A stretch of DNA of 64,000 bases, taken from sequence record NC_024794.1; one strand, given 5' to 3'. Numbering within the stretch: position 1 is the first letter of the stretch; each line of letters starts with the position of its first letter. The notes beneath the pieces are model-generated. The model searched no databases. It saw only the letters and a program-made list of their open reading frames with translations, and was not told the origin of the DNA. The stretch is from Escherichia phage vB_EcoM_PhAPEC2. This document shows positions 27,866 to 37,834 of the stretch, piece after piece. The translations under genes were made by a program, and so were the position numbers.

Positions 27866-27895
27866 ATAGTATCACACATCCATGTGTTTGTAAAC
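27866..27895 (-). promoter_or_regulatory. T4 early-type promoter (GTTTACA-N17-TACTAT)
   Basis: Minus strand GTTTACAAACACATGGATGTGTGATACTAT, overlapping alt stop. Confidence 0.55.
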
Positions 27896-29982
27896 TATCC
27901 TTGGACAAATTTAAACGGAACTGATTCTAAATCCATTAAAGATGCTAACAATTTCAATCCTTTAGGAGCACTAGTTTTTTCTACAAATGAGGAGAACGAT
28001 ACCGGCTCATCTGATTCGATTTCACCCGCCATAGCAACCACCTCGCCTGTTTCCATGAGAACATCGCCGTCGTAAATGACAGCTTCATCCAACTGGTCCG
28101 AGGACATGACTTCAGCTTGAATAAATTTAAGGTTGGATTCTAAACCTGCACCGGTGTCAGATGACGCATCTGTAATTTTATTTATCTGCAAGAGAATGCC
28201 TCTAGGCAAAATAATTTCTTGCTCATTAGGGTGATTACTCAACTGTCCTGGATAAATCACGTTAACTTTATGAGCGCCATCAATAGCCCATCCAACGTTA
28301 ACACGGATTTGTTCTGGTGCATGCATAGCTGTTCTTACTTGACTCGGAGAAATAGTAACACCTTCGTCATTATTATCAATGTTAAGCTCTTTGCGAACTT
28401 CTTCAGGAGCAAGTCCAAGGGCAACGTTCTCTTTAAACCCACCGAAAATAATAGGAGCTAGTGAAGTGGAAACATAGTTTCTGAAGTAGAATACCTTATT
28501 TTTAACCATTGCTTCGTAAATAGGCATTCTGATAGACTGAGCTCTATATAACGTTAGTCCTTCAGGTAAACGGTCTCCATTTAAAAACGCCGAATCAAGA
28601 CCATCAATAGCGCGTTTAACTTCATCTTCATCCGCAACATCATAAAAATCTGGTTTATAACGACCTAACAACATATTATTGATATCGGTATACGCAGAAG
28701 AGGCATATTCACGAATAGCTCGTTTTTCAGCAACAGAGTATTGTTTAGGGTCCCGATTCATTGTTATATTAAAGGTGCCTTTAGCCGATTCTCGTGCATA
28801 AGTATACATCACATTAGACAAGAACGCTGATTTACGTTGTTTCCAAGTTTTTTCAGATACTTCAGCTAAAACGTCGTCAGCCAGTTGGAAATTATCTCGT
28901 CTAAAATCTTCAAACCATTCGTCTTTAATAGAGTCTGCAATTTCATTTGCAGCTTCAACAAAAGCAGCTAATGCTTTAACAGATGTTGTTTTTTCAGTTT
29001 TAATTTTCTTAGCAAACTTTTCTAAAGTTGGTTTAATAACACTACCATAAGAAACTTCATCAGCAAATCTAAAGGATTCATCAATACGATTATAAATCTT
29101 ATTTTCGATATCAGCAACTAAAGTGCCTTTTGCTGTGGATGATGCTTGGGCTAGTACGATTTCATATGCTTCAGGAAGTAATTCGGCTGTAGCCGGGCCA
29201 CTAACTTCTTTAGCAGAATTTTCGTATTTCTGGAATAACTCACCTTCTTGGCGGTCAGCTTCTAAAGATTGGCTTGCGGCAATAGCGCGCCGAGAAATTT
29301 TAGTACGAGCAATAACAGGCTTATCTTTACGTTTTTCTTCTACAGCAGCAATAGAACCAGCGATAGCCGTTTCTTTGGTGACCTTTTCGCCAGTCTTTTT
29401 ACTCACATAAACTTCGCCAACATCAGAATCTACTTTCGTGTACAACTCTGTGTTAATGTTAGGGATGCCTTTAATATCTTCAATGTTGGCATTTTTACGA
29501 ACCATCATCACATAGGTGTGTTTACCTGTGAATTGATACATTGCAGACAATACTTTAAAACGACCACCGGTTTTAGTAGAAACTAAACGAGCAAGAAGAG
29601 TTTGAAGTTGTTGTCCGCGTCCTTTCAATTTCTTGGTAGGGAATCGGAACAGAACTGCATCCATACGAAGAGCTTTAACCTGTTCATATACCGTATTGAA
29701 AATGGTGTTGATTGCATCAATAGGAGCAGGACCAAGGCCATTTTTCAATTCAGCGAGATTACCCTTTTCAGACAGACTCATAATAACAACATGAGCGTAT
29801 TTGTCGCCAAGTTTAACTTGTTTTACAGCGTCGCCTTCGGAAAGGTAAGAGAATAAACGAACTACGATGTTTGTATCGATATCACCAATTTTCCAGACTT
29901 GTGGAACTTTAGCTTTAGGGTTCAAATTGACGACAGGAAGACTGCCTTCAGATTCAAACACTTCATTTAATTGTTCAGACAT
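27895..29982 (-). CDS. alt: Alt ADP-ribosyltransferase (packaged, modifies host RNA polymerase)
   Basis: 695 aa at T4 alt position between gene 54 and gene 30. Confidence 0.85.
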   Translation of the reverse strand: MSEQLNEVFESEGSLPVVNLNPKAKVPQVWKIGDIDTNIVVRLFSYLSEGDAVKQVKLGDKYAHVVIMSLSEKGNLAELKNGLGPAPIDAINTIFNTVYEQVKALRMDAVLFRFPTKKLKGRGQQLQTLLARLVSTKTGGRFKVLSAMYQFTGKHTYVMMVRKNANIEDIKGIPNINTELYTKVDSDVGEVYVSKKTGEKVTKETAIAGSIAAVEEKRKDKPVIARTKISRRAIAASQSLEADRQEGELFQKYENSAKEVSGPATAELLPEAYEIVLAQASSTAKGTLVADIENKIYNRIDESFRFADEVSYGSVIKPTLEKFAKKIKTEKTTSVKALAAFVEAANEIADSIKDEWFEDFRRDNFQLADDVLAEVSEKTWKQRKSAFLSNVMYTYARESAKGTFNITMNRDPKQYSVAEKRAIREYASSAYTDINNMLLGRYKPDFYDVADEDEVKRAIDGLDSAFLNGDRLPEGLTLYRAQSIRMPIYEAMVKNKVFYFRNYVSTSLAPIIFGGFKENVALGLAPEEVRKELNIDNNDEGVTISPSQVRTAMHAPEQIRVNVGWAIDGAHKVNVIYPGQLSNHPNEQEIILPRGILLQINKITDASSDTGAGLESNLKFIQAEVMSSDQLDEAVIYDGDVLMETGEVVAMAGEIESDEPVSFSSFVEKTSAPKGLKLLASLMDLESVPFKFVQG

Positions 29983-30015
29983 AGTGTTTTCCTTTTAGTA
30001 ATAATTTATATTTAT

Positions 30016-30038
30016 GCCAAAAAGAGCCCGAAGGCTCT
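30016..30038 (-). terminator. intrinsic terminator downstream of ORF 30038-30226
   Basis: Minus strand AGAGCC-TTCG-GGCTCT-TTTTTGG. Confidence 0.6.
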
Positions 30039-30226
30039 TAATCCACAATCGGGAGCAAAGTACGATAAACTTCAAAATTAGGGCCTTTTTCGTACCCATT
30101 AACGTTATCTACGAAAACCCGATACGAATTTTCATTAGGAAAATCTAATATAATCTGAGAGCAAGAGGTGGAAACATCTCCACCATCCTTCTTAGCTACA
30201 ATAACTGTTTCTAAATAAGCTTTCAT
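30038..30226 (-). CDS. hypothetical protein (62 aa)
   Basis: Track start is GTG; first ATG (30224-30226) overlaps gene 30 stop as TAATG. Confidence 0.55.
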   Translation of the reverse strand: MKAYLETVIVAKKDGGDVSTSCSQIILDFPNENSYRVFVDNVNGYEKGPNFEVYRTLLPIVD

Positions 30227-31719
30227 TATAAACCTGTCTGGGACCACGGTCCAAATACGTCTTCAAATGAATCCGCTTCTGTTTTATCAAAACGGAACCC
30301 TTTAATAATTGGAAGAAAAATACCTACAGTACCTTCACGGCCTTTAGAATGAACCCAACCGTTACATTCACAATCAGCGATACGTCCAATTAATTTACCT
30401 TCACGAGCTTCGGTCATTAATCGTTCACGGTCTAAATCATGACGCTCGTCTAAAGGAATAAGAACCTTTACACCATCAACTGTTTTATGAGTTGTATCTT
30501 TAAAACCTGAACCACAATCGGTTGTAATACGACGACAACGTGATACGAGTTCGACACCACCTAATTTGTTAGGGTCTTTAGAGTGTTCATAGTATCCTAC
30601 AACTTCTAAAGCGATATCAATAACTTCTTTAAATTTAATTAGGTTCTTAGAGCGTTTGTTTTCCCAATATGAATCACGGTTTTTAAGGATAATACCTTCA
30701 AGACCTTGGTCAACATATTTTTTATAAACCACTTTAGCTTCGTCAAGATTACGAACTAACTGATTTTCAATTGGCTCAATTCGCTTAAAGCCTTCAGCCA
30801 TATTTTCAAGAGCAGCAAAACGAACATCGTATTTCTGACCTTTAATTTTGCCATCAGAATAGACTTCATCTAAAGGAACATAGTCCCAGGCTTGAAGAAC
30901 CATACCTTCCGCTTCTTTAGGAGAAATAGTCCCTTGAAGAGATTTATTTGCTAAACCATTTGAAGTGCTACGGTCTGCAACTTGTACTTCTTCGGATTCT
31001 TCATTATCACCAAATAAGAACGACAGGTCATTTCCTGAGCTCACAGCCTTTTTAATATCAAATGAATGATAAACTAATTCACCGTCGATTAAAACCCCAT
31101 TAGGGTGTCTTTCACGAGCTTCTTTAGTCATTTCCATTAGTTCATCTGCTAATAGGGTAAGACCATGGTATTCATTACCAGCACGAGAAAAGAATTGAAC
31201 ACCAGCATCGCGAACTTCAGCGAAACAACGAGCACCATCGGCTTTTAATTGAGCAAATGCAGGCCATTTAATATTTTTAGTAATCAATTTCTCATCATAT
31301 GCAGATGCTAACATCTGTGGTTGCAATTGAATAAGTCCAGGCCACACCTTATTCGCGATAGACACTGAAGCACCTACTTCAAGGTCGCGCATCATTACAC
31401 GACGAAGGACTTCTACATCATCAGGTTTACCGTCAGCGATATAACCCATGAGCTCTTTAATTGCAGCATTACCAGTGAGTTTACGAGTGGCTAATGTGAA
31501 CTCAATAAAATCCAACATGTCATCTAATTCAAGAAGACCATATGCTTGAGACCTTTCACCTGGTCCTGGCCATTTCTTAATATAATACTGGATACCACGT
31601 GCATATGCTAAACGATACACACGTTCAAGTAATTTGTTGTCCTTATTTTTCTTAAGGATTTCTTGTTTTGTTTTAGTAGAACCGATCGCAGCTATTTGGT
31701 TTAAAATATCTAAAATCAT
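30226..31719 (-). CDS. 30: ATP-dependent DNA ligase gp30
   Basis: 497 aa; strong match to remembered T4 DNA ligase (MILxILN...GSTKxKQ, KADGARCFAEV adenylation motif). Confidence 0.95.
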   Translation of the reverse strand: MILDILNQIAAIGSTKTKQEILKKNKDNKLLERVYRLAYARGIQYYIKKWPGPGERSQAYGLLELDDMLDFIEFTLATRKLTGNAAIKELMGYIADGKPDDVEVLRRVMMRDLEVGASVSIANKVWPGLIQLQPQMLASAYDEKLITKNIKWPAFAQLKADGARCFAEVRDAGVQFFSRAGNEYHGLTLLADELMEMTKEARERHPNGVLIDGELVYHSFDIKKAVSSGNDLSFLFGDNEESEEVQVADRSTSNGLANKSLQGTISPKEAEGMVLQAWDYVPLDEVYSDGKIKGQKYDVRFAALENMAEGFKRIEPIENQLVRNLDEAKVVYKKYVDQGLEGIILKNRDSYWENKRSKNLIKFKEVIDIALEVVGYYEHSKDPNKLGGVELVSRCRRITTDCGSGFKDTTHKTVDGVKVLIPLDERHDLDRERLMTEAREGKLIGRIADCECNGWVHSKGREGTVGIFLPIIKGFRFDKTEADSFEDVFGPWSQTGL

Positions 31720-31985
31720 TTGATGTCCTCGATTTTGGTTACGGTTCTATTATAAGCCACTTCATCTAGAAGCGATTTCAGCGTTTTCTGATAAGTGGTA
31801 ATCCATTTACCGAGCCCTTCAACATAATATTCTGAAATGTAGATGAACCCTTGTTCAACACACTCTTTAAATATTTCTGCGTCTTTTACTGAACGAAACA
31901 ATGGCCAGTCTCGAAAGAACATGTTAACGTGACCGTAGTCACGTGTGGTATTTTTGCCATCTGTAATATCATGAACTACAAACAT
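31716..31985 (-). CDS. hypothetical protein (T4 30.1 position)
   Basis: 89 aa ORF overlapping gene 30 start. Confidence 0.6.
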   Translation of the reverse strand: MFVVHDITDGKNTTRDYGHVNMFFRDWPLFRSVKDAEIFKECVEQGFIYISEYYVEGLGKWITTYQKTLKSLLDEVAYNRTVTKIEDIK

Positions 31986-31994
31986 AATTAACCC

Positions 31995-32819
31995 TTAACA
32001 ATTTATAGACCAAGTCCATTTAGACGAATCTAAAGGAAAGTTTTGAATCGTCCACCACGGCTGCATATCAGTTGGTCCTGGGGTTCGCCAGGTATATGGA
32101 GTACGTGTTGTCGAGGGGCCACCAATTTGATTAGGCCATGCGCCTGGACTTGTTGCACCAGATTCTTTAAGCAAATCCGCCAATCGTTTTAAAAGGTCTT
32201 CACGATCTGAATCTGAATTATGCTCTGGTGGAACCAAACGAGATTCAATATCATCCCACGTGTGTACACGTTGTGCAGTACGAGGAATGGCATCACGTTC
32301 ACCACGAGCCAACCAATAAATCGGTACATTAAGAATTTCTGCCGCATGGTCACAGTGATGAGCTAAATCGTCAACATAACAAATCACGTTATATTTTGTT
32401 TTAGCTAGTTCGAATAATTGTTCCTTTGAAGAATCATGACCACACATCATTACTTCAGAGAAAGCGCCTGGGAACAAAGCATTCAAATTAAATTGTCTAT
32501 TCAATCGAGCATCAATTGAATCACCTAGCGCCGTCACGGCTACAAAATTATAGTCTTCTTTTAGTTTATTGATAACTCGAAGAGCATCCGAATAAGGCGC
32601 TAAGTAACGAATAAAATCAGAGCGATTATATTTTTCTATTAATTGTTTACCAAGGTTATCGTCGGTATTGAACAGTTTACCAGGAGAAATAAATTTTTCG
32701 TCCTGAATCATTTTTAAAATATGTTCTAATGGAAGGTTATATTTTTGGGCAAAATAAGGAAGTCCAGATTGCCAGCTTAAACATACACCATCAATATCAG
32801 TCAAAATAGTAGGCTTCAT
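31995..32819 (-). CDS. HAD-superfamily phosphatase / 5'-nucleotidase-like protein (T4 30.2 position)
   Basis: 274 aa; N-terminal LTDIDGV resembles HAD motif I. Confidence 0.6.
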   Translation of the reverse strand: MKPTILTDIDGVCLSWQSGLPYFAQKYNLPLEHILKMIQDEKFISPGKLFNTDDNLGKQLIEKYNRSDFIRYLAPYSDALRVINKLKEDYNFVAVTALGDSIDARLNRQFNLNALFPGAFSEVMMCGHDSSKEQLFELAKTKYNVICYVDDLAHHCDHAAEILNVPIYWLARGERDAIPRTAQRVHTWDDIESRLVPPEHNSDSDREDLLKRLADLLKESGATSPGAWPNQIGGPSTTRTPYTWRTPGPTDMQPWWTIQNFPLDSSKWTWSINC

Positions 32820-33283
32820 AAAGAATCTCTTAATAGGTTTAACACATCAATAAATTCAGCTTCAGTTAGTATTGTATCATCTTTTGTTAGACCACTAGCC
32901 ATGCTGTGCTTCAAAATTTTTCCTTTAGAGGCTTGTAAGGCATCACGAAACCCCTTGTTTTGGATCGCGGCTTCAAAATATGCATTTGTGTATAATTCTT
33001 TCCACGCTTCGGAGTATCTTGAAAATGGAACTCCTAACCAGAAGAGAGTCCCGCGGTCCTGAGCTCTTGCATAAGACCTTCCAGCTTGCTGTGCAGCCAA
33101 TCCAGACAACCCAAATATACGTCTTTGTTGTTCAACATTTTTCACCTTACATCCTTGGAGAAATCCTTCAAGACCTCCGAATTGAATACCATCCATAACA
33201 AAAGGCCATTGAGCAAAGTTACTTAATGCACATGACGGCCACTTGAAATTACTTCTTATTTCTAATTCAGACATCTTTAACAC
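32816..33283 (-). CDS. NADAR-like (YbiA/DUF1768-type) protein (T4 30.3 position)
   Basis: 155 aa; LSNFAQWPFVMDG...LEGFLQGCK resembles remembered E. coli YbiA FSNFAAWPIKVDG...SEHYFQAQK. Confidence 0.5.
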   Translation of the reverse strand: MLKMSELEIRSNFKWPSCALSNFAQWPFVMDGIQFGGLEGFLQGCKVKNVEQQRRIFGLSGLAAQQAGRSYARAQDRGTLFWLGVPFSRYSEAWKELYTNAYFEAAIQNKGFRDALQASKGKILKHSMASGLTKDDTILTEAEFIDVLNLLRDSL

Positions 33284-33485
33284 TTATAATTTCAACATCA
33301 GCCCAATGGCCGTATCCTGGTATACGATCTTCGATAGATAAATTTCTGTCATTTTTAGGCATTTTAATTGACGTAACGTATGGTTCTAAACGGTTTTCTG
33401 CATAATATGGAAAAACGTCCGTCACACGATAAGTAACTTCAATCATTTCTGTACCAAACAATTTCTGGATTAATTTTTTAAGCAT
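33267..33485 (-). CDS. hypothetical protein
   Basis: 72 aa ORF in tight operon. Confidence 0.5.
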   Translation of the reverse strand: MLKKLIQKLFGTEMIEVTYRVTDVFPYYAENRLEPYVTSIKMPKNDRNLSIEDRIPGYGHWADVEIISVKDV

Positions 33486-33489
33486 TTTA

Positions 33490-33777
33490 TTAGAACCTCA
33501 TCTGAAAGCCATGTGATTTAACATTACCGCCGCCAATATCAGAAATGTTAATTTCACTTGCAATCGAAGGATCGATGTCAATTTCACGATTAAGTTTAGT
33601 GATAGCTAAAGTATCATGCCCATTTACTGTACGAAACTCCAAAGGACATACTACGTTGACGTAGTGTTTAATTGACTCGCTAGTAGGTTGCAAATGGGCT
33701 GGAAGGTCTTTAGGTGCTTTAGAGAAAACAACTTCACAAAAGTTTTTGCGGGTATCAAAATAAGTGGTCATAAACAT
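33490..33777 (-). CDS. hypothetical protein
   Basis: 95 aa ORF in tight operon. Confidence 0.55.
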   Translation of the reverse strand: MFMTTYFDTRKNFCEVVFSKAPKDLPAHLQPTSESIKHYVNVVCPLEFRTVNGHDTLAITKLNREIDIDPSIASEINISDIGGGNVKSHGFQMRF

Positions 33778-33818
33778 AATATTTTCCTCAATTGGGAGCC
33801 GAAGCCTCCATTTTAAGA

Positions 33819-34247
33819 TTAGATATCGAATTCGTTAAGAACTACATCAAAGATTGCTTCGAGATGTTCAGGTTTAGCTCGGTTACTCAGGATATGACGA
33901 ATCCAAGTTTTAACCAGAAGTTTACGATTAACACCGTTCCAGCAAGGATGAGTACCTAAATCACGTTGACGGAAATCGTCATCTAATGCAATTTTGAAGT
34001 TGGAACCTTCCATCGTGATTGAAACCGTGATGCCATTTTCAAATCGCATATAAACGTAATTAGGAGTCATATACTGCTCAATTTCGCATACTGAACCGTT
34101 ATTATGCTTCCATAAGCAAATCGTATCGATAGAACCAGCGATACCGTTAGAAACATATTTGCGTTCGAAGTTGGTGTAGTTCATTTTATTCTCCAGATGT
34201 TTAAGTTGTTTGTTGGTACAGGTATATAATAACATATCCTGTACCAA
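33819..34247 (-). CDS. hypothetical protein
   Basis: 142 aa ORF. Confidence 0.6.
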   Translation of the reverse strand: MVQDMLLYTCTNKQLKHLENKMNYTNFERKYVSNGIAGSIDTICLWKHNNGSVCEIEQYMTPNYVYMRFENGITVSITMEGSNFKIALDDDFRQRDLGTHPCWNGVNRKLLVKTWIRHILSNRAKPEHLEAIFDVVLNEFDI

Positions 34248-34258
34248 AGTAAACTGGT

Positions 34259-34627
34259 TTATGCAACTTTAATCCAATTGTCTAAATTTAAAACACCTTT
34301 GGCTTTCATTTTTTCGATCAGGTTATCTGCTGTAATGCGTCCATTTTGATACCATGTAACATCTTCAGAGTAACCAGTTTCTTCATCAACATATGTTTCT
34401 GAACGAATTTTACCGGTAATAATAGTTTTTAATTCGTATGTGTCACCTGTGAAAAAGTTTGCTAACACAATTTTCCAAGAGAAATCATTTGAAGGGCCTT
34501 CAGGGGTCATACAACCTACGAACTCAAATTGCTCTTTGTATAACATCCACTGGAATTCTTTAATTTCGATAGCTTTATAACCGTCGTGGTCTTTACATTT
34601 GATGTATGAGTTCAGATTGATTTTCAT
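34259..34627 (-). CDS. hypothetical protein
   Basis: 122 aa ORF with SD GGAGA and early promoter upstream. Confidence 0.6.
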   Translation of the reverse strand: MKINLNSYIKCKDHDGYKAIEIKEFQWMLYKEQFEFVGCMTPEGPSNDFSWKIVLANFFTGDTYELKTIITGKIRSETYVDEETGYSEDVTWYQNGRITADNLIEKMKAKGVLNLDNWIKVA

Positions 34628-34668
34628 TTTATTCTCCGGTTGTTTTATTGATTAGGTGGTACAAGTCT

Positions 34669-34697
34669 ATAGTAACACATCCTACAGGAGAGTAAAC
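34669..34697 (-). promoter_or_regulatory. T4 early-type promoter (GTTTACT-N16-TACTAT)
   Basis: Minus strand GTTTACTCTCCTGTAGGATGTGTTACTAT. Confidence 0.55.
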
Positions 34698-34714
34698 ATC
34701 TTTTTAAACTTTTT

Positions 34715-34751
34715 CTGCCCTAAACGCACAAAAGGGAGACCGAAGTCTCCC
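34715..34751 (-). terminator. intrinsic terminator after small basic ORF
   Basis: Minus strand GGGAGAC-TTCG-GTCTCCC-TTTTGTG. Confidence 0.7.
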
Positions 34752-34756
34752 TAAAA

Positions 34757-34936
34757 TTATGCAACAACCTTTCCAAAACGAGAAGCATCATCTCGAAGAA
34801 CTGCACGTGCTCTGCGCATGATCTTCTCAACTGTTTGATTAATACGAGAGTTCGACCCACGCTTGTATCCAGCGCGTTTAGAGGTACCATCAACTTTCTT
34901 TTCAACTGCTTTCTTTGCTTTAGCTTGTTTTGCCAT
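34757..34936 (-). CDS. small basic hypothetical protein (59 aa), not in ORF track
   Basis: Hand translation MAKQAKAKKAVEKKVDGTSKRAGYKRGSNSRINQTVEKIMRRARAVLRDDASRFGKVVA; stop directly followed by terminator; track ORF 34720-34905 runs through that hairpin. Confidence 0.55.
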   Translation of the reverse strand: MAKQAKAKKAVEKKVDGTSKRAGYKRGSNSRINQTVEKIMRRARAVLRDDASRFGKVVA

Positions 34937-35199
34937 TATAAATTCTCTTTAAATGAAAATGCAGGACTTATTGACATTGCCTGCGCAAGCCCTCAAGGGG
35001 AACATAGGTTTTGGATATTTAACGACAGGATAACCATAAACCCGTCATCATACCAACCACGACTTAGACAGATAACCTTTTTCTGACGCGTGATAGTACA
35101 AAATACATTCAAGAGGTACACCGTAAAACTGTCGGGGTCTTAAAACTATAATGATTCGCAAATCATTAATCAGACAGTTCGACGGCTCCTCGATTTAAC

Positions 35200-35448
35200 T
35201 TACTTCAGGGTAATAACAAAATGACGTACTGCTTTACGAGCCGCAGAAGCCAAAGGCTTAGCATATTTCAGTTCATCTTTTGCTTCCAGTTCAGAGGCCA
35301 ATACAGCTTGGGCAGGGTTCAGATGTTTGAAATAACGCAGGATTTCCAATGCTTCGGCTTCAACATCAATAGATGCACCGTAGTTTTCGTGACCATTATT
35401 CCATGCGTTTCGTTGCAGTTCAAGAGCGTGTTGTAATTGTTTAATCAT
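35200..35448 (-). CDS. rIII: rIII lysis-inhibition accessory protein
   Basis: 82 aa, same length and position (downstream of gene 31) as T4 rIII. Confidence 0.85.
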   Translation of the reverse strand: MIKQLQHALELQRNAWNNGHENYGASIDVEAEALEILRYFKHLNPAQAVLASELEAKDELKYAKPLASAARKAVRHFVITLK

Positions 35449-35572
35449 TTTAAATTCTCAATTCGAGATAATATTTAGTAGCCACGTTCGTCTGAATTTC
35501 ACCTTCTTTCGACAAGTCTCTCAGTTGTAGGCTACCGCTTAGAAGAGTGTTCTCTTCATATAGTTATTTATA

Positions 35573-35905
35573 TCACTTATAAAGACACGGAATAGCTTTA
35601 TAGTGGCATGTTACGAATTTCTGTTTAATTTCTTTAGGTTGTTTAAGTCCCAAAGCCACAAATGGATGTGGAACATTTCGAATTTGTCCAACTGGTAGTG
35701 GAGTCAAATCACCGACTTCAACAAAACCTTCAGGAACATCAGGACCTACAGAATGAACTACACATAGTTCAGGAACTTCACCTTGAACACGTTTACCAAT
35801 CACAAGTCCTGATTCGGTAACTTCTTCATCACCTGCTTGAGCGGGTTCAGAAACCAGAATGACATATTCACCAACAGCACGAATTGGGAGTTGTACTTCA
35901 GACAT
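35573..35905 (-). CDS. 31: gp31 co-chaperonin (GroES analogue)
   Basis: 110 aa; matches remembered T4 gp31 ([29 protein letters not shown]...). Confidence 0.95.
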
Positions 35906-35935
35906 CTTATTTCCTTGTTGTTTGACGATAGATTA

Positions 35936-35961
35936 ATAATACCATACTATTCGTAAAGCAT
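35936..35961 (-). promoter_or_regulatory. candidate MotA-dependent middle promoter for gene 31
   Basis: Minus strand ATGCTTTAC - 11 nt - TATTAT. Confidence 0.4.
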
Positions 35962-35962
35962 A

Positions 35963-36271
35963 TTACATAAGAAGCAAACGTTCTACCGGAGTACCATCAA
36001 CAGAAATTACTTTATCAAGGCGGAAAGAACGCCACTGACCTAACTCGGTATCGAATGCTCTAACTGATTCACGAGGTTCATAACGAACTTCTGTTGCCGG
36101 ATTGTTATTTTCATATTTGACTTCAAGTTCATCGCGCGAAGCAAACATAGTGCGTACCTCGCCGTTAGCCTTTTCAAATACAACACAATGAACGCCTACA
36201 GACAGAATAGTTTTAATACGTTCACGAAGAACCATAGTTTCTTGTTCAGTTAAAATCATATTATTCACCAC
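35963..36271 (-). CDS. hypothetical protein (T4 31.1 position)
   Basis: 102 aa ORF between cd and gene 31. Confidence 0.6.
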   Translation of the reverse strand: MVNNMILTEQETMVLRERIKTILSVGVHCVVFEKANGEVRTMFASRDELEVKYENNNPATEVRYEPRESVRAFDTELGQWRSFRLDKVISVDGTPVERLLLM

Positions 36272-36842
36272 AAAAGTTTCGGATTTGTTCCCAATTCAGA
36301 GAACGAAGATTATTACGAGAGTACTGAATTACTTCAATACCAGCTTGTTTTAGAATGTCTGCCCAATTTTCAGGAGACCGGTCATATAATTCTGCATATA
36401 CAACCTTTTTAATACCTGACTGTGTAATAGCTTTAGTGCAATCAGGACATGGAGAAAGCGTCGTATACAACGTAGCACCTTCAATAGAATTACCTTTACG
36501 AGCTGCAAACAAAATTGCATTCAATTCCGCATGGATTTCATTATTAGCAGACCATGCACTATGAGCGGCCCGATGTTCTTTAGCCAAAACAAAATTATCC
36601 ACCCGTCCAAATGCTGTAGTGCCTTCTTTATGCCCAGCAACGATGACCGGGCTTGGTTTATTCTTCAACCAACCGTTTTCGGATGCATGTTCGCAACAGT
36701 TTGTACCACCTGAAGGAGAGCCATTATAACCTGTAGAAATAATGCGTCCATCTTTTTCAATGACGGCACCAACTTTCCATGAACAACATTTTGATTCTTG
36801 AGAAATCAGATATGCAATCTGAAGGTATGTGCTAGCTTTCAT
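36261..36842 (-). CDS. cd: dCMP deaminase
   Basis: 193 aa; zinc-binding HAE...PCxxC deaminase motifs; same length as T4 Cd. Confidence 0.92.
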   Translation of the reverse strand: MKASTYLQIAYLISQESKCCSWKVGAVIEKDGRIISTGYNGSPSGGTNCCEHASENGWLKNKPSPVIVAGHKEGTTAFGRVDNFVLAKEHRAAHSAWSANNEIHAELNAILFAARKGNSIEGATLYTTLSPCPDCTKAITQSGIKKVVYAELYDRSPENWADILKQAGIEVIQYSRNNLRSLNWEQIRNFCGE

Positions 36843-37834
36843 TATTGAACCTTATTAATATAAGTTAACAGCTCTTTAGTTTGTTCCCAACTGATGCACG
36901 CATCGGTAATGGAAACGCCATAGGACATATTATCAGAAATTTTTTGATTTCCTTCATGTAGGAATGATTCTATCATAATTCCTTTGACCAAATCATTAGC
37001 TGCTAAATTTTTACCAATACCAATTTGATTGCTATAATGCCCATCAGCGTTTGCATGGCTACAGTCAACCATTACATAATGATTCAGACCTACTGCCCTT
37101 GCTTTGTTAGAAGCTTCTTGAATATCAGAAGAATGATAGTTCGGGCCGTTGGTCCCGCCACGCAATACGATATGCGTATTCTGATTACCTTCAGCTTCAA
37201 CAATGCCTACAGTACCATCGACGTCCATACCCATATACCGATGAGGCCAGGCGGCACTATACATCGCGTCTGTAGCTACTTTAATAGAACCATTGGTTGC
37301 GTTCTTGAAGCCTACGCACATCGGTAGACCTGAAGCAATTTCACGATGTGTCTGACTTTCAGTCGTACGGGCGCCAATAGCAACCCATGAGAAAATACCA
37401 GAAAGATACTTAATCGTGAATGGGTCTAATACTTCAGTTGCTAATGGAAGTCCCATACGTAGAAGTTTACGACACAATGTTCGTGCAACTATAAGACCGT
37501 GGTTCATATCAAAACTTCCGTCAAGATATGGATCATTTACAAGACCTTTCCAACCTACGGTAGTTCGAGGCTTTTCAAAATAAACGCGCATCACTAACAG
37601 AACATTAGGAAGACGAGTTTGAAGTTCAGCCAGACGTTTGCCGTATTCAACAGCAGCAATAGGGTCATGAATTGAACAAGGACCTACAACAATAAGTTTG
37701 CGTGGGTCTTCACCATTCATAATCGAATTAACTTGTTCGCGATGAGAAGCCACTTGTGATGCGTAAGCTTCCGACAAAGGAATAATCTCAGCCAGTTCTT
37801 TTGGAGAAATAAGTTTTCCGACGACAGGTAACAT
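36842..37834 (-). CDS. 3-deoxy-7-phosphoheptulonate (DAHP) synthase, class I-alpha AroG/AroF-like
   Basis: 330 aa; GPCSIHD, KPRTTVGWKGL, IGARTTESQ, DCSHAN, ESFLHEGNQ, SITDAC align with remembered E. coli AroG; TAATG overlap with cd. Confidence 0.85.
   Translation of the reverse strand: MLPVVGKLISPKELAEIIPLSEAYASQVASHREQVNSIMNGEDPRKLIVVGPCSIHDPIAAVEYGKRLAELQTRLPNVLLVMRVYFEKPRTTVGWKGLVNDPYLDGSFDMNHGLIVARTLCRKLLRMGLPLATEVLDPFTIKYLSGIFSWVAIGARTTESQTHREIASGLPMCVGFKNATNGSIKVATDAMYSAAWPHRYMGMDVDGTVGIVEAEGNQNTHIVLRGGTNGPNYHSSDIQEASNKARAVGLNHYVMVDCSHANADGHYSNQIGIGKNLAANDLVKGIMIESFLHEGNQKISDNMSYGVSITDACISWEQTKELLTYINKVQ

Follow-up and report, generated by a model that had tools for sequence, protein, structure and literature searches.

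The counter-defence function of gene 30.3 of T-even phages was described by Johannesman et al. (2025), who traced the T4/T2 gene through recombination mapping and gave it the name adfN (anti-DarT factor NADAR) (PMC11825919). It was shown that T4 and T2 lose plaquing on DarTG1 hosts upon deletion of adfN, that ectopic AdfN rescues RB69 on these hosts, and that ADP-ribose is removed from DarT1-modified DNA by purified AdfN and not by its E36A variant (PMC11825919). AdfN was found to be necessary and sufficient for DarTG1 resistance in T-even phages with no effect on DarTG2, and the E36A and K43A exchanges each weaken the T4 enzyme (PMC11825919). Concerning the substrate, T4 gp30.3 hydrolyses guanine-ADPr, not thymidine-ADPr (PMC11125620), and cytidine-ADPr is not removed by it (PMC12945103). 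The third catalytic position distinguishes branches of the family: the phage gp30.3 branch has His there, YbiA-type proteins have Glu and DarG1-type ones Asp (PMC11125620, PMC11543638). In uninfected cells DarT1 is not neutralised by T4 AdfN, and the phages T5 and Bas25 were barely helped by it (PMC11825919, PMC11125620). T4-type AdfN thus reaches its full effect during T-even infection only; the simple picture of a free-standing antitoxin is incomplete, and it seems that an extra T-even factor is required. One detail of this literature concerns the protein length: the methods of the Toxins 2024 paper give the construct "T4 phage NADAR (gp30.3)" as residues 1-208, compared with 152 residues in the T4 record, the larger figure being due to a tag on the construct, to another homolog or to a misprint (PMC11125620).

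The window, i.e., the whole 64,000-nucleotide stretch of Escherichia phage vB_EcoM_PhAPEC2 (NC_024794.1) analysed here, very probably carries a functional adfN allele in a Mosigvirus background, the product of which is predicted to be a minimal, stand-alone glycohydrolase of the NADAR fold acting against DarTG1. By sequence comparison the window phage is an RB69-like T-even phage of the genus Mosigvirus: a stretch of 25 kb around adfN shares 97.4% identity with Shigella phage Shf125875 (Mosigvirus), and RB69 is ~95% identical to the window over a sub-stretch of 6 kb. The assignment is based on orthology, fold, intact catalytic residues, an intact C-terminus and purifying selection; for enzymatic activity and counter-defence phenotype it relies on published work with the T4 protein, which is 97% identical, and by analogy the window allele is expected to act like T4 AdfN.

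On the minus strand, positions 32816..33283 hold an open reading frame of 155 aa when counted from a GTG codon, and the motif "SNFA-WP-DG", by which the original prediction had recognised it, corresponds to LSNFAQWPFVMDG in this frame. The protein matches the Pfam family PF08010 (Phage_30_3, "Bacteriophage protein GP30.3") with 230.9 bits and E=5.1e-69 over the full model (1-138), the gathering cut-off being 36 bits, and it also matches phrog_652; NCBIfam contains no model for it. T4 gp30.3 and the window protein share 148 of 152 residues (97%), the four differences from T4 being K11R, E89P, I120V and M125I, none of which is at a catalytic position. The gene is present in 672 phage records, with at least 80% DNA identity in all but one, and its dN/dS compared with T4 is 0.045 and therefore indicates strong purifying selection. 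The Pfam score, the number of phage records and the dN/dS value argue against a chance frame. Together with the gene order lig-30.1-30.2-30.3-30.4-30.6-30.7-30.8, which is common to the window, T4 and RB69, the similarity identifies the frame as the ortholog of T4 gene 30.3 (adfN). The gene predicted originally is thus real, while its extent of 155 aa needs correction to 152 aa: translation almost certainly begins at the ATG at 33274, since MSELEIRS, with which every ortholog opens (the annotated genes of T4 and Shf125875 among them), corresponds to this codon, and since no other start agrees with the residue numbers in the literature (E36, K43). The positions of the gene and of its landmarks are collected in Table 1.

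Table 1. Features of the adfN locus with their positions in the window and the evidence used for each.
Feature	Position	Strand	Evidence
adfN (T4 gene 30.3 ortholog), predicted stand-alone NADAR-fold DNA ADP-ribosylglycohydrolase, 152 aa + stop	32816..33274	-	orthology, fold
Overlap of gene 30.4 end and adfN start codon, 8 nt, ATGTCTGA	33267..33274	-	ORF coordinates, sequence; same arrangement in T4 record
E36 codon GAA, catalytic glutamate	33167..33169	-	sequence; invariant in A2; corresponds to E43 of the Phytophthora NADAR structure
K43 codon AAG, catalytic phosphate-coordinating lysine	33146..33148	-	sequence; invariant in A2
H123 codon CAC, marks the phage gp30.3 NADAR branch	32906..32908	-	sequence; invariant in A2
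C-terminal alpha-helix, residues 138-151, intact; sequence ends ...EAEFIDVLNLLRDSL	32822..32863	-	AF2 model; DNA alignment
ATGA, adfN stop overlapping the gene 30.2 start codon	32816..32819	-	ORF coordinates, alignment

The compact overlapping arrangement 30.4-30.3-30.2 of the window equals that of T4. The 8-nt overlap suggests translational coupling of 30.4 and adfN, and in all 11 Tevenvirinae-like viral contigs that contain full-length 30.3 and downstream DNA the start of 30.2 coincides exactly with the 30.3 end, so that the three genes are probably arranged for coupled translation. A consensus scan around adfN returned 21 promoter-like hits compared with 18.8 in shuffled sequence and 3 terminator-like hits compared with 3.7, i.e., no excess of either. 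T4 also has an internal out-of-frame ORF, 30.3' (75 aa), which was considered as a conserved second product; in the window (33034-33138, minus strand) a stop codon ends it after 34 aa, which argues against 30.3' being a conserved coding sequence.

The proposal that the protein belongs to the NADAR family had been derived from a short motif only, and it was borne out by fold, profile relationship and catalytic residues. At the level of sequence searches the outcome is divided: the window protein alone does not match Pfam NADAR (PF08719) at E<=1, and a single-sequence search of the PDB sequences gave no match at E<=10, whereas 31 of the 75 gp30.3-family members in the family alignment A2, which reaches down to ~35% identity, match PF08719 individually (best E=1.5e-7). 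The profile of A2 matches E. coli YbiA (2B3W) with E=0.0077, exactly over the N-terminal SNFA...E...Q..KF segment. The link from gp30.3 to NADAR, as far as sequences are concerned, is a transitive one that needs profiles or structure, and not a direct one. With A2 as input, AlphaFold2 gave a model that is confident over its whole length (pLDDT 93.3, pTM 0.89), and the structure comparison proposed at the outset returned a NADAR fold, with YbiA at E=3.6e-5 and 8bau at a probability of 1.00 in a Foldseek search against the PDB. The residues E36 and K43 of the window protein align with the E...K of YbiA; the catalytic Glu/Lys pair of NADARs (E43/K50 in PnNADAR, E88/K95 in E. coli C7) is present as E36/K43 and invariant in the 75 homologs. 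H123 likewise shows no variation in A2 or among 13 close viral loci. The conserved Glu in the last strand that is the hallmark of YbiA-type proteins is absent, its position being taken by this His.

The T4 genes surrounding adfN in the window are alt, gene 30 (DNA ligase), 30.1 (DUF3045), 30.2, 30.4, 30.6, 30.7 (PF06919), 30.8 (PF06019), gene 31 (Cpn10-like) and cd (dCMP deaminase). Eleven window proteins were compared by tblastn with 80 viral loci encoding adfN homologs, and clustering was applied to 1,527 ORFs that neighbour the gene in 66 distant loci (<50% identity). Within the 80 loci, alt, the ligase gene, 30.2 and 30.4 accompany adfN in T4-like phages only. Neither the tblastn comparison of the 80 loci nor the clustering of the 66 distant ones yielded a conserved partner gene outside T4-like synteny, the largest real cluster comprising 8 loci. 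Therefore, neither a writer/eraser relationship with alt nor a cofactor role of 30.2 gains support from the neighbourhood.

Gene 30.2 (31995-32819, minus strand) encodes a protein of 274 aa that belongs to phrog_420 and is weakly HAD-phosphatase-like, its HAD_2 match (E=0.02) lying below the cut-off. In each examined T4-like locus with full-length 30.3 and downstream DNA, the start of 30.2 overlaps the stop of adfN. The HAD-like gp30.2 might be the T-even helper of AdfN, in which case the real counter-defence module would be the unit 30.3-30.2 and not AdfN by itself. This is regarded as unlikely. Gene 30.2 is absent beside most distant adfN homologs, and the pairing may thus be plain synteny.

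As an alternative to an action on DNA, the protein could act on small soluble molecules, such as free ADP-ribose derivatives, immune signals or intermediates of the riboflavin pathway, and so be a metabolic, salvage or signal-quenching enzyme. Such a role would agree with the fold shared with YbiA. However, the gp30.3 branch has His where YbiA-type proteins have Glu (PMC11125620), no NAD-salvage gene adjoining adfN was found in the window, and no recurrent gene family stands beside the 66 distant loci, whose neighbours were clustered and not individually annotated. Furthermore, ADP-ribosylated DNA is a direct substrate of the T4 ortholog, whose deletion phenotype is specific for DarTG1 (PMC11825919). 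A soluble substrate is very unlikely on these grounds, and nucleotide salvage, which had been named as an alternative to counter-defence in the original prediction, found no support. The anti-DarTG proposal itself agrees with the experiments on the 97%-identical T4 ortholog (PMC11825919, PMC11125620), with the restriction that it holds for DarTG1 (guanine) only and does not extend to DarTG2 (thymidine).

The original prediction further placed an alt gene at 27895-29982, about 3 kb away, and combined it with the NADAR-like gene into a pair of writer and possible eraser. The gene is real, the ORF at 27895-29982 matching ADPrib_exo_Tox with E=5.8e-28 and ending 2.8 kb from adfN, and it had already been remarked that T4-like phages have NADAR and ADP-ribosyltransferase genes together in their early regions (PMC9503650). 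It could accordingly be supposed that AdfN serves as eraser for the ADP-ribosyltransferases of the phage, i.e., Alt or ModA/ModB, tuning or reversing the modification of host proteins or RNA. The targets differ, however: according to a note in the T4 record, Alt is a virion-borne ADP-ribosyltransferase acting on host RNA polymerase, a protein substrate, while the activities reported for T4 AdfN concern guanine-ADPr in nucleic acid (PMC11125620, PMC12945103). Moreover, only T4-like loci, which account for 2 of the 66 distant ones, have alt within 6 kb of the homolog, and between window and T4 the amino acid identity is 43% for alt compared with 97% for adfN, so that the two do not co-evolve. 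As distant homologs have no conserved neighbour and the two genes diverge so differently, the proximity of alt reflects inherited gene order and provides no evidence for a functional pair; a role of AdfN as eraser for these enzymes is considered most improbable.

The predicted anti-DarTG1 enzyme depends on an intact allele, and here the comparison with RB69 is informative. It was reported that insertion of a T at gene position 411 of RB69 30.3 removes the last 15 residues, i.e., the C-terminal helix, and yields a DarTG1-sensitive phage (PMC11825919). In a three-way DNA alignment this extra T, just upstream of the C-terminal helix that full activity requires, is present in RB69 only and thus missing from the window. 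Among 596 records matched by a 62-nt probe spanning the insertion, only two, both of RB69, matched at 100%, so that the defect is private to RB69. After removal of the T, only three residues (S2P, R51H and R52S), none of them catalytic, separate the RB69 translation from the window protein. In the window allele all invariant family residues are kept and the frame of 152 aa is complete. RB69 chimeras that regained only the 3' part of 30.3 became DarTG1-resistant (PMC11825919), and such a functional chimera, combining an RB69-type 5' part with an intact 3' part, would essentially be the window allele. That the gene is present but non-functional in the window phage is hardly credible: the close relative RB69 does carry an inactive allele (PMC11825919) and public data contain several gp30.3 fragments that are truncated or frameshifted, but the window frame is complete, lacks the insertion confined to RB69 records among the 596, retains every invariant residue and gives a confident model over its full length.

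Truncated gp30.3 entries were observed for the phages SV76, UGJNEcP4 and vB_Eco_NR1 (P0007, P0015 and P0017) and additionally in P0004-P0006 and P0013. In P0017 the 30.3' frame is joined to the C-terminus of 30.3, implying a frameshift. These entries may represent further natural loss-of-function alleles of adfN or artefacts of sequencing or gene calling.

The region from 27895 to 36842 is mosaic with respect to T4. The products of 30.3, 30.6, 30.7 and 31 show 95-97% protein identity at a dS of 0.5-0.7, and those of the interleaved genes alt, 30, 30.1, 30.2, 30.4, 30.8 and cd show 43-72% identity at a saturated dS of 1.6-2.8. This suggests that 30.3, 30.6, 30.7 and 31 were subject to a later, gene-sized exchange between lineages of Mosigvirus and Tequatrovirus or to unusual synonymous constraint. 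Recombination is plausible because adfN moved between T2/T4 and RB69 in laboratory co-infections (PMC11825919). T4 gene 30.5 is missing at 33485-33490, where 30.4 is directly followed by 30.6 as in RB69. Directly downstream of the dCMP deaminase gene, where T4 has cd.1, the minus strand (36842-37834) encodes an AroF/G/H-type 3-deoxy-7-phosphoheptulonate (DAHP) synthase of 330 aa, matched by Pfam DAHP_synth_1 with E=4e-75 and by NCBIfam with E=1e-136, which is also annotated in Shf125875. DAHP synthase catalyses the first step in the synthesis of aromatic amino acids and is here encoded by a lytic phage. Scans of the whole window for tRNA genes and Rfam families found nothing.

Taking AdfN as an anti-DarTG1 glycohydrolase, its action in the window phage may be pictured as follows. 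The protein would probably be made early in infection. DarT1 of the host would attach ADP-ribose to the N2 amino group of guanine in single-stranded phage DNA and thereby block replication. AdfN would cut the N-glycosidic bond, with E36, K43 and H123 serving in catalysis, and restore the unmodified guanine. The phage would thus bring along an orphan equivalent of the DarG1 antitoxin activity, enabling replication in hosts that carry DarTG1.

The anti-DarTG1 role of gp30.3/AdfN is already published, and no new mechanism is presented here. As the closest public genomes label the gene "hypothetical protein", it can now be named adfN, DNA ADP-ribosylglycohydrolase and anti-DarTG1 factor. It is predicted that the window phage, unlike RB69, should form plaques on DarTG1-carrying hosts, which is useful for matching phages to hosts with known defence repertoires.

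Compared with the known systems, the window protein is closest to T4 gp30.3/AdfN (PMC11825919), with which it shares, beyond the high identity, the length, the residues E36/K43/H123, the C-terminal helix and flanking genes with the same overlaps. It differs from T4 AdfN by the four substitutions, which are conservative or of surface type, and T4 AdfN derives from a Tequatrovirus, whereas the window allele comes from a Mosigvirus. RB69 has the same genus-level backbone but a naturally inactive allele in place of the intact one. E. coli YbiA (2B3W) and the Phytophthora NADAR (8BAU) share the fold, but they show only 18-20% identity and carry Glu where the phage protein has H123. YbiA has a role connected with riboflavin, and YbiA-type and NADAR-type enzymes also remove cytidine-ADPr, which the T4 phage NADAR does not (PMC12945103). 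The NADAR protein DarG1 (Geobacter lovleyi 8BAT, E. coli C7) adjoins a DarT toxin, whereas AdfN is an orphan: the neighbours of adfN, such as 30.4 and the HAD-like 30.2, gave no match to a DarT domain, and the gene is thus not a member of a DarTG1 toxin-antitoxin pair. DarG1 carries N-terminal additions and AdfN consists of the core domain only (PMC12945103), the third catalytic position is Asp in DarG1 and His in AdfN, and T4 AdfN is unable to neutralise DarT1 when cells are uninfected (PMC11825919, PMC11125620).
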